A stretch of DNA of 64,000 nucleotides, taken from NCBI GenBank assembly GCA_944377165.1, contig CALWEJ010000002.1, forward strand, positions 69,764-133,763, written 5' to 3'. The stretch is from an uncultured Clostridia bacterium. Lineage in GTDB: Bacteria > Bacillota > Clostridia > Christensenellales > UBA1242. How positions within the stretch are numbered: the first letter of the stretch is position 1; every line of letters starts with the position of its first letter. Positions 14,626 through 32,595 of the stretch are shown here, in pieces. The translations under genes and the position numbers were made by a program. The notes below the pieces were generated by a model, which worked only from the letters and a program-made list of their open reading frames with translations, was not told where the DNA came from and searched no databases.

Positions 14626-14669
14626 TGGTGACCCCGCCGGGACTCGAACCCAGAACAATTCCTTAGGAG
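14626..14669 (-). pseudogene. 3' half of a disrupted host tRNA-Arg(CCT), left junction of the island
   Basis: Minus strand reads CTCCTAAG-GAAT-TGTT-CTGGG-TTCGAGT-CCCGG-CGGGGTC-ACCA. This is an anticodon loop, T arm, acceptor 3' strand and CCA with no 5' half adjacent. Confidence 0.85.
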
Positions 14670-14812
14670 CAATAGAAAATCATTAAAATATCATTTCTAA
14701 CACCAATTTTATTAATTATCATCAAAATTATAGTCAATTTTGTCCAAAATCTCAACCAAATTGACTATCTTTTCTAACTTTTAATCAAACCTCTCCAAAA
14801 TCACGGTGACGA

Positions 14813-14853
14813 TTTGGTGCACTTTTGAGCAAAATTGCAGTTTGGGTGCACTT
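14813..14853 (+). promoter_or_regulatory. left-end copies of the TTTGG(G)TGCAC repeat (candidate integrase arm-type sites)
   Basis: TTTGGTGCACTTT at 14813-14825 and TTTGGGTGCACTT at 14841-14853. The same two motifs occur at 32451-32470 just inside the other island end, in the same orientation. Confidence 0.45.
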
Positions 14854-14893
14854 AGATAAAATTAAATAATTTAAACAATCTTTGCTACCACTA

Positions 14894-14921
14894 TTCAATT
14901 TTACAATTTTTGTGTTATAAT
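14894..14921 (+). promoter_or_regulatory. candidate promoter for the helicase gene
   Basis: TTCAAT at 14894-14899, 16-nt spacer, extended -10 TGtTATAAT (TG at 14913-14914, TATAAT at 14916-14921). RBS GGAGAAA lies before the ATG at 14945. Confidence 0.5.
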
Positions 14922-14944
14922 GTAAATATATTTGGAGAAATTGC

Positions 14945-17900
14945 ATGCTTAAAAGTATAGAAAATTTTGTAGAAAGTAAAGATAATGGTTTAATGCTTTT
15001 AGATCTACCAACTGGATTTGGTAAAACCGCTAGTGTTATTAATTTCATAAAGAACTTTATTAATAATGACTCACCAGTTGTTAAACGGGTTTATTTTGTC
15101 ACGAACCTAAAAAGCAATTTGCCAGAGAAACAACTTAAAGAATTGTTTGGAAACGCTTACAATGATTATTGCTTATATCTAAAACCATATTGGCAATCGG
15201 TTACCGAAAAGTGGAAATATATTCAAATCAATAATTCTGAAATTCTTAATTCAGATGAATATAAAAATTTAAATCTAGATATTGAAACTCTTTATAAATT
15301 TAGAGCCGATAAAGAAAAATTCAAAATTGAAAAAAACTTTGATCACGAATATAAACAGACAAAAAGATTGATTAAATCTTATGAACAAAAAATTGAAAAA
15401 GATACTGAAGTAAAATTTAGACAATTTATTAAAAAGAATTATCTATACAACAAATCAACAAATGACAAAGATAAGTTTCTTAACAGCAATAATTGGATAA
15501 TGGAATTATATCCAGCATGCAAACTTAAAGATGAAAAAATAAAAGTTGTCTTATCGAGCACTAAAAAGTTTTTTAGTCCAATAGATACTTTTTCGCGTAT
15601 GCCTTTTTACATTTATAACAACAATGCAATGATGGATAATACAGTAACATTTATTGATGAATTTGATACTACAAAGGAAACTTTACTTACCCAAATTATA
15701 GATGATGGTTTAAAGTTCGATATTGATATTTTTGCATTGTTTTTAAATATCTACTATTCGCTTACAAATTTGAAATTCCCAAATACGTTAATGAAGCTTA
15801 GTGATTATAGAAAAGAGAAAATCTCAAACGAAGAATGGGAAGACATTGAAACATTAAAAAAACAACTAGAATCACACTTTGTTCAAGTTTATAATGATTA
15901 TAATTTTGAATTGTTTACAAAAAGCAAAGGATTTGAAGAAAAAAAGGCTTTCATTTTTGATGATGGGAAAACTCTGAATATTTTTAATGATAATTCAAAG
16001 CGAGTACTCCATACTAAATTAGATAAAGATGAAAATAATATATCTTTATATGCTGAAACAAAAAGCTGTAAAGAGCAAAATGATAAGAGATTTGATAATG
16101 TATTGAGAAAGGTTAAGTTTGCTATTGATGATTTTGTAAATAAAACAGCATATATTTCAAAAAACTACACAGATTATAAAAATCAATCCTTAAAAGGTTA
16201 TAAAACAAAATACTCTTTTGAAGAGTCGGTATTGACCATTTTATCCGCCTTTAACATAGCAAATGAGTTTAAACAATACCTACTAGATCGTATAATAGAT
16301 AAGGATGCGAATTTAAAGTTGGATTTGCCACTAGATTCAGAATTTGAATTTATGCGTAAAGGGTTTGAGTTTACAGAAATTGAAGACGACCATAACCATG
16401 ATTTACAAACAAAATCTCACGCTTTCAAATTTGATACTACACCAGAAGATATAATAACCAAATTGAGCGTCAAGTCTCGCGTTGTGGGAATTTCCGCCAC
16501 TGCATCAATTGACACAGTTATTGGGAATTATGATATAGATTATCTTAAAAAAATTTTAAAAAATGATTTTTACATAATTCCAATAAATGATTATTCTAGG
16601 TTGGAAAATCAATTTTTAGATAGTCAAAAAATATACAATGATTACAAGATTGAAATAAACACTATTCCTATTGATGATTTTAATTTCTTCTCAGACAAAG
16701 AAAAATGCATAGAAATTATAAATTCATTATTTAATGATGAAAACAAAAAGTTTTATTTGGAACACCTTGAAAAGAATATTAGCAACTATCATTTCTTTAT
16801 AATCTGCAAACTTATGAAACTTTTTAAAGAAGTTGCTGAAAGTAAAAATCTGTATTCATTTTTAGCGTTTCTAAATTCATTCCCAACAACAAAAGATAAA
16901 ACTAAAAGCGAGCATTTTTTAGATAAAGATATTTTAGATAGAGCCATACAAGACTTGATATCTCAAAATAATTATGATAATCCCCCAATGTTGCACATTG
17001 TAAAAAGTAATAATTATGATGAAGAATTTATTAAGATTAATGGAGAATTAGCCGAAGGTAAAAAGGTTTTTGTTTTAAGTACATATAAAACCATTGGAAA
17101 TGGTAAAAATATTCAATATAACATCCCAAATCTAGAACAAATAGAACAAAATGTAATATTGTTTCCAGAAAACAAACCTCAAAAAGACTTTGATGCTATT
17201 TACCTCTCTACTCCTACGAATTTAATTCAAATGTTATCCTACAATTCTGAAAATAAAGTAAATGAGTTATGTAAATACCTTTTTCAGCAAGAATATTTGT
17301 ATCAGAAAAAATACATATATCATAGCGAAAGAAAGACAAACATTGAAGCTGGATTTAGAAAAACATTTTATGGTGATAAAATATTTTCTTCATATAAACG
17401 AAATCAAGATATATTATTACATACGGCACAATTGGTAATTCAAGCCGTTGGAAGAATCTGTAGATGTAGAAATAAAAATAAAACAATAAACATCTTTTAT
17501 GATCAAGAAGTTTTAAATAGATTAAGTATCATAAAAGATGAGTTATTAAGCGAAAGATTCATATTTAACAAAGAATTTCAACAATTGTTAGAGCAACCAA
17601 TAAAAAATGATGATTTAGAATTTGTAAAATATACAAACAAAAACAAAAAAGCTTTTGTAACTATTACAAAAATGTCTAAAGCTGTTAGGAAATCGGAACA
17701 AGCAGTTTTTGACTGGCAAGATCTACGAGATTTTGTTTTAAAGAATCCAACGTCAAACTATATACCAGATAAGTATAAAGAGTTATATTTTGAATTTGAT
17801 ATTGCTTATTCTGGGTATGCGTTTAAACTTAATAGTAAGCACGAATTTACAAAAATCTCATTTAACAATTCTTATGAAACAGATCAAGTTTCTGCAGAAG

Positions 17901-32320: not shown

Positions 32321-32348
32321 AATAAAAAAGACCAACTTTTTGGTCTTT
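32321..32348 (-). terminator. terminator downstream of the island-borne tRNA-Arg
   Basis: AAAGACCAA (32327-32335) / TTGGTCTTT (32340-32348), followed by a T-run on the minus strand. Confidence 0.7.
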
Positions 32349-32353
32349 AAAAT

Positions 32354-32430
32354 TGGTGCAACCGAGATGATTTGAACATCCGACCTATCGCTTAGGAGGC
32401 GATCGCTCTATCCAGCTGAGCTACGGCTGC
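32354..32430 (-). tRNA. tRNA-Arg (anticodon CCT), carried inside the island
   Basis: 77 nt: GCAGCCG-TA-GCTC-AGCTGGATA-GAGC-G-ATCGC-CTCCTAA-GCGAT-AGGTC-GGATG-TTCAAAT-CATCT-CGGTTGC-ACCA. All stems pair. Confidence 0.92.
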
Positions 32431-32450
32431 ATATTAAGTTTTTTAGTGGT

Positions 32451-32470
32451 TTTGGTGCACTTTGGGTGCA
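32451..32470 (+). promoter_or_regulatory. right-end copies of the TTTGG(G)TGCA repeat (candidate arm-type sites and/or tRNA promoter -35)
   Basis: TTTGGTGCAC at 32451-32460 and TTTGGGTGCA at 32461-32470, matching 14813-14853. On the minus strand GTGCACC lies 17 nt upstream of TAATAT, ahead of the island tRNA. Confidence 0.45.
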
Positions 32471-32555
32471 AATCGTAATTGTGCGTGTTTTGAGTAGTTG
32501 TTAAATGTCCGTGTTTTAGGGATATGTAGCAGTTTTATTTTAGTACAAGTCGGTA

Positions 32556-32595
32556 CTTAGGAGGGAACCGTAATATCCTGTTTTACTACGAGATC
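32556..32595 (-). pseudogene. 5' half of the disrupted host tRNA-Arg(CCT), right junction of the island
   Basis: Minus strand reads GATCTCG-TA-GTAA-AACAGGATA-TTAC-G-GTTCC-CTCCTAAG. It pairs perfectly in register with the orphan 3' half at 14626-14661. Confidence 0.85.

Follow-up and report, generated by a model that had tools for sequence, protein, structure and literature searches.

A 17.9-kb defence island of an uncultured gut Firmicute splits a host tRNA-Arg gene and carries a complete tRNA with the same anticodon

The stretch of DNA considered here (the window) comprises 64 kb of contig CALWEJ010000002.1 (positions 69,764 to 133,763, forward strand) from the metagenome-assembled genome (MAG) GCA_944377165.1 of an uncultured Clostridia bacterium. 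From window position 14662 to 32563 it contains an integrative island of 17.9 kb that interrupts the host gene for tRNA-Arg(CCU), written CCT in the DNA, within its anticodon loop, rebuilds this gene at neither junction, and carries a complete tRNA-Arg gene with the same anticodon. Our preferred reading, to which we assign a probability of about 0.8, is that this defence island split the host tRNA gene without repair and compensates for it with its own tRNA, and that it represents a non-phage counterpart, in the Firmicutes, of the 'tRNA-dependent lysogeny' known from mycobacteriophages (Guerrero-Bustamante and Hatfull, mBio 2024; PMC10865867). The parts of the split gene and the sites of recombination are as follows, where attL and attR denote the left and right attachment sites of the integrated island and attB the attachment site of the empty chromosome.

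14600 to 14617, minus strand: intrinsic terminator of the host tRNA (AGCAGTCTTCTGACTGCT followed by a T-run; terminator scan), now behind the orphan 3' half only
14626 to 14661, minus strand: 3' half of the host tRNA-Arg(CCT), with the anticodon stem 3' strand, variable loop, T arm, acceptor 3' strand and CCA
14662 to 14669, no strand assigned: attL, 8-bp common core CTTAGGAG, on the tRNA strand CTCCTAAG, corresponding to the 7-nt anticodon loop and G39
32556 to 32563, no strand assigned: attR, second copy of the 8-bp common core CTTAGGAG
32564 to 32595, minus strand: 5' half of the host tRNA-Arg(CCT), with the acceptor stem 5' strand, D arm and anticodon stem 5' strand
No window coordinates: predicted attB of this species with its flanks, ...TTATATGATCTCG...GGTTCCCTCCTAAGGAATTG...GGTCACCAAGATTTG

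When the minus-strand segments 32595->32556 and 14661->14626 are joined in silico, as a sequence-only reading of this DNA had proposed, ARAGORN recognises the product, 76 nt in length, as a tRNA-Arg(cct) whose acceptor, D, anticodon and T arms are those described by that reading. An uninterrupted tRNA of MAG contig L009 agrees with the joined sequence at 76 of 76 positions, the contiguous tRNAs of L004, L005, L006 and L008 each agree with it at 75 of 76, and a scan of one genome per GTDB species with the junction-spanning 22-mer CGGTTCCCTCCTAAGGAATTGT returned six loci, all of them with an intact tRNA-Arg(CCT). The separate halves of the window gave no tRNA match on Rfam and weak tRNA-like noise only, as expected for internally truncated genes, and the covariance test was therefore done on the identical contiguous copy of L009, which scored 53.6 bits with the tRNA model RF00005 (gathering score 29). 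At the junctions themselves ARAGORN found no tRNA, neither at attL nor at attR, which bears out the claim that the host gene is not regenerated, and the only tRNA-Arg gene that it reports in the whole window is the island copy at 32354-32430(-).

The 8-bp core is duplicated at both junctions as had been stated, and the same core is present at all junctions examined in relatives, barring one-base variants in L028 and L029. As an 8-mer alone, CTTAGGAG is not significant, since it occurs five times on the plus strand of the window; the evidential weight sits in the flanks, which form a known tRNA. Its copy at 1459 is a ribosome-binding site, and the copy at 27519, considered as an internal attachment site that would divide the island, was rejected as a chance occurrence, as it lacks tRNA-like flanks and falls into a terminator-like hairpin that separates the convergent integrase and SMEK genes.

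Independent assemblies of other samples contain both junctions: L134 has attL (688/700 identity), and L002 and L003 match attR exactly, so that a joining of unrelated flanks by assembly error does not explain the locus. It was also observed that Logan short-read contigs break inside these tRNAs, with L001 and L135 starting in the 3' half and L003 ending (at 3521) in the island tRNA, presumably owing to shared tRNA k-mers or strain mixture. Many metagenome assemblies will fail to show these junctions on account of such breaks. As to the unoccupied locus, a sister species (L138, Dus 82% identical) shows the gene order HU-MurJ-Dus followed by a single intact tRNA-Arg(CCT) just downstream of dus, and this is a syntenic empty site, from a sister species rather than from the same species. 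The synteny of L006 and L008 is partial: Dus and MurJ are common to the window and these loci, and the tRNA lies ~5 kb farther on, beyond a SpoVT-like gene.

The second tRNA of the locus lies within the island, together with a terminator.

32327 to 32348, minus strand: predicted intrinsic terminator directly after the island tRNA
32354 to 32430, minus strand: complete tRNA-Arg(CCT) of the island, 77 nt with encoded CCA (ARAGORN; Rfam tRNA, 65.5 bits)

This gene, which the sequence-only reading had correctly identified as a complete tRNA-Arg(CCT), is located 125 nt inside attR in the orientation of the broken host gene. It is identical in the window, L017 and L132 although the host tRNAs of the three differ, so that the tRNA evidently travels with the island.

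Integration can be attributed to a lambda-like tyrosine integrase and a pair of arms around the attachment site of the island (attP).

14670 to 14860, no strand assigned: left (P) arm, with arm-type repeats TTTGGTGCA at 14813-14821 and TTGGGTGCA at 14842-14850
25844 to 26086, plus strand: candidate excisionase (recombination directionality factor), 80 aa, ending 15 nt ahead of the integrase gene
26101 to 27492, plus strand: tyrosine integrase, 463 aa (Pfam Phage_integrase 1.9e-17 and Phage_int_SAM_3; PHROG_1 integrase 1.6e-60)
32431 to 32555, no strand assigned: right (P') arm, 125 nt, with tandem arm-type repeats at 32451-32459 and 32462-32470 and core-proximal TACCGACTTGTAC

The N-terminus of the integrase is a SAM-like, arm-binding region, and Arg, His and Tyr residues, including R293/R294, H407, R410 and Y443, are invariant in 13 homologues. 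The 80-aa open reading frame (ORF) gives weak, sub-threshold matches to HTH_17 (E = 0.0047) and to the 'excise' domain TIGR01764 (E = 6.8e-4), and an ORF of 72-93 aa occupies the same position in relatives. The arm-type motif TTKGGTGCA occurs four times in the window against 0.66 expected, always on the plus strand and twice per arm (~150-185 bp inside attL and ~85-105 bp inside attR), which is the usual layout of arm-type integrase sites. Across an alignment with seven relatives the right arm has a mean column identity of 83%. On the island side of attR the core is followed by TACCGACTTGTAC and not by a tRNA segment that would regenerate the host gene. Among deposited phages the integrase has no close relative, the best match, to uncultured faecal contigs, being 31% identical.

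The remaining genes of the island are its cargo and a small backbone, for which the following ORFs were recorded.

14945 to 18385, plus strand: DdmD-like helicase/nuclease, 1146 aa (PADLOC DdmD, E = 3.7e-31; weak Pfam ResIII match)
19489 to 20613, plus strand: 374-aa ORF, no match in Pfam, PADLOC, PHROGs or NCBIfam
20627 to 23353, plus strand: type II restriction-modification (R-M) system (PADLOC REase_II and MTase_II)
20627 to 21229, plus strand: Bsp6I-type endonuclease of this system (Pfam RE_Bsp6I, 2.9e-24)
21266 to 22408 and 22409 to 23353, plus strand: two C5 cytosine methyltransferases of this system (Pfam DNA_methylase, 3.7e-76 and 6.5e-98)
23354 to 23686, plus strand: ASCH-domain ORF of the conserved backbone that precedes the integrase in relatives (Pfam ASCH, 1.3e-10), its position filled likewise in L010, L127 and L131
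24650 to 25348, plus strand: 232-aa backbone ORF, no family match in Pfam, PHROGs or NCBIfam
27531 to 32282, minus strand: protein with SMEK_N and AAA ATPase domains, 1583 aa, candidate defence gene (Pfam SMEK_N 1.3e-27 and AAA; NCBIfam SMEK_N)

ORFs of 217-235 aa take the position of the 232-aa ORF in L010, L127 and L132, the likeness being one of size and position. Since the cargo matches defence families, and since no PHROGs match to phage structural, packaging or lysis families was obtained among the island ORFs scanned, the island is an integrative defence island and not a prophage. Scans with Pfam, PADLOC and PHROGs gave no transposase in it, and a repeat search found no long inverted-repeat pair at its two ends.

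The same arrangement recurs in a family of elements. More than 700 integrase homologues were found, and the loci around integrase relatives were fetched from several collections. All informative loci with an integrase at least ~36% identical to that of the window read alike along the tRNA strand: a tRNA-Arg 5' half ending in CTCCTAAG, an arm that measures 125-210 nt and contains arm-type repeats in tandem, a complete tRNA-Arg with the same anticodon, one to three cargo genes and the integrase. This layout is found in L127, L131 and L132 (integrase 88-98% identical), L017 (81%), L026-L029 and L069 (74-78%) and L010 (67%), as well as in L033-L045 and L066 (38-52%) and in the prophage L105 (40%), an IMG/VR contig of siphovirus type that carries the module together with tape measure, Dit, tail, holin and endolysin genes. 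The tRNAs of all family members point the same way as the disrupted gene. Both halves are present and join into a tRNA in L131 and likewise in L010, the island of which measures ~12 kb.

Two features of this family concern the target tRNAs. The first is the diversity of targets: within the clade of integrases 67-100% identical to that of the window, eleven different host 5' halves precede the same arm type (junction TA[CT]CGA), three of which (window, L127 and L132) belong to integrases at least 97% identical, and ARAGORN did not recognise a tRNA when the host 5' halves observed were combined with the 3' half of the island. The arm motif changes on both sides with the lineage of the integrase: it is GGTGCAC in the window and GGTGAC in L010, and the right arm of L026 has GGTGAAC. 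The second is the match between target and carried anticodon: L038, L039 and L042 (integrase 36-39%) target tRNA-Arg(CCG) via the core CCTCCGAC and carry a tRNA-Arg(CCG). This matching is, at the level of sequence, the strongest argument that the carried tRNA would replace the broken one. More distant relatives (L083/L118, L094 and L085; 27-35% identity) are of the classical kind: the tRNA is regenerated and stands intact, as tRNA-Arg(CCT), beside the integrase, and a displaced 3' fragment beginning at the anticodon loop marks the opposite end.

Further observations concern the cores and the cargo of the relatives. The core reads CTCTTAAG in L028 (~12772) and TTCCTAAG in L029 (~13058), each one base off the consensus; this may reflect tolerance of a mismatched overlap by the integrase or else decay of the orphan half after integration. 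The cargo of L010, L017, L127, L131 and L132 (integrase 67-98%) differs widely on both sides of a conserved backbone, which in most of the five consists of the ASCH ORF, the 217-235 aa ORF, small ORFs and the integrase. It includes HamA (Hachiman-like), a Z1/HATPase/DUF4420 set, a DndB-like protein and GmrSD, as well as type I and type II R-M systems, KwaA, AbiTii and a reverse transcriptase (RVT_1).

Several loci hold more than one trace of integration. In a Lachnoclostridium sp. UBA1781 MAG (L007, 3100-3520), three orphan tRNA-Arg(CCT) 5' halves ending in CTCCTAAG stand ~60-100 nt apart, two of them identical along with the upstream 30 nt, and are followed by one intact tRNA-Arg(CCT); this array resembles what serial integration into one tRNA after another would leave behind. 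L042 (12546-13140) has two copies of a unit made up of promoter region, 5' half and arm, 273 nt apart, followed by an intact tRNA-Arg(CCG) with the same 5' half. The island-type tRNA 3' half of L030 (12875) is displaced by a second island, the far-end 3' half of L131 (1526, 12346 and 12528) pairs with the outer of two stacked 5' halves, and the two halves of L127 (604 and 13692) are mismatched, which together suggests that an island can be displaced from its site by another one. Some apparent 5' halves upstream of island arms (L033 at ~6110, L035 at ~5398 and L037 at 225) are left arms of another island; CCCTACATTA(A/G)GAGCAGCAATATC precedes the right arm in L035 and the true 3' half in L037, and these junctions are arm-core-arm hybrids of tandem islands.

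The neighbourhood of the island in the window has features of its own. The left flank (1981-12200) holds conjugation genes, namely those of a TraG/VirD4 coupling protein (1981-4011, minus strand), a type IV secretion system pilin (4428-4784) and a VirB4-like ATPase (9453-12200). In L008 (7173-8000), a protein 95.6% identical to this ATPase directly adjoins an intact tRNA-Arg(CCT), whereas Dus is only 72% identical between the two loci, and both genomes therefore seem to have a conjugative element next to this tRNA. Between a candidate dus-proximal promoter, described below, and the host tRNA 5' half lies a 26-nt imperfect inverted repeat (32684-32767, 81% complementary), which may be a small palindromic insertion. 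The spacer between dus and the tRNA is much shorter in the sister species L138; its alignment with that of L138 is uninformative and its predicted fold unremarkable (z = -1.4). The host region to the right includes a single ORF of 3665 aa (42451-53448, plus strand).

Taken as a mechanism, we propose that the tyrosine integrase would have recombined attP with the anticodon loop of the host tRNA-Arg(CCU) gene downstream of dus. As attP and attB share only the 8 bp CTCCTAAG, attL and attR regenerate no tRNA, and the complete tRNA-Arg(CCU) of the island, beside the arm-type sites, would make up for the split gene. While the island is integrated, this tRNA would be expressed, probably by read-through from the host tRNA promoter, and would replace the lost function; precise excision would restore the host gene. 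The likely advantage would be independence of the host range, the anticodon loop being the only part common to all tRNA-Arg(CCU) genes. A donated 3' half must pair with the host 5' half in the acceptor and anticodon stems, so that a whole gene in combination with a loop fixed by decoding removes this constraint, and an element that needs the loop only and brings a whole tRNA could enter hosts whose tRNA stems clash with a donated 3' half. This rationale would fit the spread over many host tRNAs described above.

Two promoter candidates outside the tRNA itself bear on the expression of the island tRNA.

32747 to 32775, minus strand: candidate host promoter TTGCAT-17-TATACT downstream of dus, read from the sequence and below the scan threshold
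14755->14727, minus strand: strong outward promoter-like site TTGAGA-17-TATAAT in the left arm, facing the core (11/12 matches)

Several points weigh against the reading that the island tRNA stands in for the split gene. Between the core and the island tRNA, a consensus scan gave no promoter of the sigma-70 type. Of the signals that the sequence-only reading had ascribed to this tRNA, the terminator (32348-32327) thus stands, while its own promoter-like signal is unproven; a conserved AATAAAA...TAATAT upstream of it, seen in an alignment of relatives, is too weak to be called a promoter. Transcription from the candidate host promoter at 32747-32775 could pass the 5' half and the arm and reach the island tRNA, no terminator being predicted between it and 32348, and such read-through is a conjecture. 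Complementation of the lost tRNA is likewise deduced from sequence. AGG is a minor codon (9.7% of the Arg codons in host genes), which a tRNA-Arg(UCU) elsewhere in the genome could decode, and the host-range rationale is one candidate explanation of the diversity of targets. The empty site that was to be expected in related genomes is seen in the sister species and not in the same species, where all contigs with the exact Dus or p303 protein carry the island or break at the tRNA; the only near-identical Dus (97%) lies on a 2.5-kb contig ending at that gene. Finally, the attP junction AGTCGGTACTTAGGAGCAATAG of an excised or packaged form had no match in IMG/VR. Given neither an excised circle nor a same-species empty site, we therefore infer current mobility in this host from the relatives.

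Other observations concern the expression and charging of the island tRNA. The site at 14755->14727 reads into the orphan 3' half in the integrated state; once the island has circularised, transcription from it would cross attP towards the island tRNA, which may be mentioned as a lead. By our reading, both the host and the island tRNA have A20 and C35, the known identity elements of ArgRS, and both encode CCA. The island tRNA is probably expressed and charged.

The sequence-only reading had regarded the disruption of a tRNA gene together with the supply of a substitute as a departure from what tRNA-targeting elements do, but this logic has precedents. tRNA-dependent lysogeny has been shown experimentally in actinobacteriophages and mycobacteriophages such as Fionnbharth, LeBron and Gaia: a tyrosine integrase uses an attB within a tRNA gene via a common core of 8-17 bp, the tRNA is not reconstructed, and the cognate tRNA of the phage is needed for survival of the lysogen, whereas close relatives restore the tRNA in the classical manner (PMC10865867). 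The authors discussed a simplified choice of attB, as extended homology is no longer needed, and asked how common the strategy is elsewhere. As cited there, Lj965, a Lactobacillus johnsonii prophage with four tRNA genes, was raised as a possible case outside the Actinobacteria, the same logic having been suggested for it earlier (PMC10865867, PMC3714127).

The island resembles these phages in its lambda-like tyrosine integrase with arm-type sites flanking attP and an attB in a host tRNA gene, in its short core (8 bp, as in Gaia), in the absence of a rebuilt tRNA at attL and attR combined with an element-borne tRNA of the same anticodon, and in having integrase relatives that use the same tRNA in the classical, restoring way. 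It differs in that it is a defence island without phage structural genes, that its host is a low-GC gut Firmicute known from a MAG and not an actinobacterium, that its family targets tRNA-Arg(CCU) or tRNA-Arg(CCG), and that its integrase is at most ~31% identical to that of any deposited phage. Moreover, its tRNA directly abuts the P' arm in the direction of the broken gene, one clade of integrases of this type is found in many host tRNAs, and the island tRNAs become targets themselves. The island has every structural feature of tRNA-dependent lysogeny but is not a temperate phage, so that the word 'lysogeny' does not apply to it. With the classical islands collected by Islander (PMC4383910) it shares the tyrosine integrase, the crossover in the anticodon loop and the direct repeat of the core at both ends, and its integrase relatives L083, L094 and L085 are classical islands that use the same tRNA-Arg(CCT). 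Such islands, however, carry the 3' part of the tRNA, regenerate the gene and leave a displaced 3' fragment at the far end (PMC4383910), whereas in the present island the resemblance of attP to a tRNA ends with the 8-bp core, both halves are left as orphans and the tRNA is brought along whole. In the literature covered, which was incomplete, we found no paper on tRNA-carrying integration of this kind in islands without a phage or on the integrase family of the window.

Among the alternatives, the one that survives best is that the island uses the tRNA for its own stabilisation, with the host tRNA destroyed and a private one supplied such that loss of the island is lethal or costly, in analogy to a toxin-antitoxin system. 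The host tRNA is indeed non-functional as long as the island is integrated, deletion of the island tRNA region by a route that is not site-specific would leave the cell without this tRNA, and the mycobacteriophage tRNA is required for survival of the lysogen (PMC10865867). The addiction-like logic that the sequence-only reading had suggested is weak, however, at the point of excision. Conservative excision is established chemistry of tyrosine recombinases, and recombination of attL with attR at the 8-bp core would rebuild attB and the exact 76-nt gene, whose halves join perfectly here, so that the island's own exit would cost the host nothing. tRNA-Arg(CCU) can moreover be dispensable where a tRNA-Arg(UCU) exists, the low share of AGG codons given above points in the same direction, and earlier islands were apparently displaced in the stacked loci L030, L127 and L131 while the host persisted. 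Dependence of the host during integration is plausible; an addiction in the manner of toxin-antitoxin systems is not supported, and overall we consider this explanation unlikely, integration irrespective of the host tRNA sequence being the better rationale.

Less likely still is that the island tRNA is unrelated cargo, be it a codon supplement for genes of the island or a decoy or replacement against anticodon nucleases, and that the match of anticodons is coincidental. Phage tRNAs have been proposed to counter tRNA-cleaving defences (discussed in PMC10865867), and the rest of the island consists of defence genes. The anticodon, however, is always that of the disrupted gene, and where a sub-clade has switched its target to tRNA-Arg(CCG), the carried anticodon is CCG as well; the tRNA always adjoins the P' arm in the same orientation, and island genes use AGG less than host genes do (5.8% versus 9.7% of Arg codons).

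It could also be imagined that the island is a classical one, with the island tRNA as the regenerated host gene and the halves as relics of older events or of another element. Relic halves are real in this family, as the stacked and mismatched halves of L007, L127 and L131 demonstrate, yet the halves of the window fit exactly and match the tRNA typical of the lineage, including that of L006 and L008, which share the dus/murJ neighbourhood. As the same 77-nt tRNA is found in islands within three different host tRNAs, and as a single tRNA, and an intact one, occupies this position in the sister species, we regard this as very improbable. An artefact, finally, in the form of a chimeric assembly or of a DDE transposon with an 8-bp target-site duplication, can practically be discarded, for although short-read assemblies often break inside these tRNAs, both junctions recur in independent assemblies, a tyrosine integrase is present, transposase and long terminal inverted repeats are lacking in the scans mentioned, and the 8 bp are not random but constant across independent insertions in dozens of relatives.

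Beyond the single locus, one could speculate that the island belongs to a large cassette family that has not been described, consisting of integrase, arms and a whole tRNA, which occurs in prophages and defence islands of gut Firmicutes, needs the universally conserved anticodon loop only and offers each tRNA as the landing pad of the next island. We put this forward tentatively, at somewhat less than even odds. If it is true, the need for the loop only would let one integrase lineage enter hosts with widely differing tRNA-Arg genes, and it would explain the stacks of orphan 5' halves (L007, L042), the hybrid junctions (L033, L035, L037) and the apparent displacements (L030, L127, L131). Mobile elements would then be 'leapfrogging' in competition for a single chromosomal site.

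Overall, the principle described here is not new, but the island extends a known kind of integration to defence islands, to gut Firmicutes and to tRNA-Arg, and the survey of its family adds the matching of anticodons, the diversity of targets and the stacking of islands. The strategy of disrupting a tRNA and bringing one's own, previously shown only in actinobacteriophages, is thereby seen in defence islands and prophages of uncultured gut Firmicutes. Tools of the Islander type, which seek an intact tRNA and a displaced fragment, would mis-map or miss such elements, and a tRNA annotated at such a site belongs to the mobile element and not to the host. For Firmicutes that are difficult to manipulate, a cassette of the integrase, ~330 bp of attP and the tRNA could be put to use as an integration tool, in the way that its mycobacterial counterparts already are. 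As such, the diversity of targets offers a testable reason for the evolution of these systems, namely that the incompatibility of chimeric tRNAs would be avoided.

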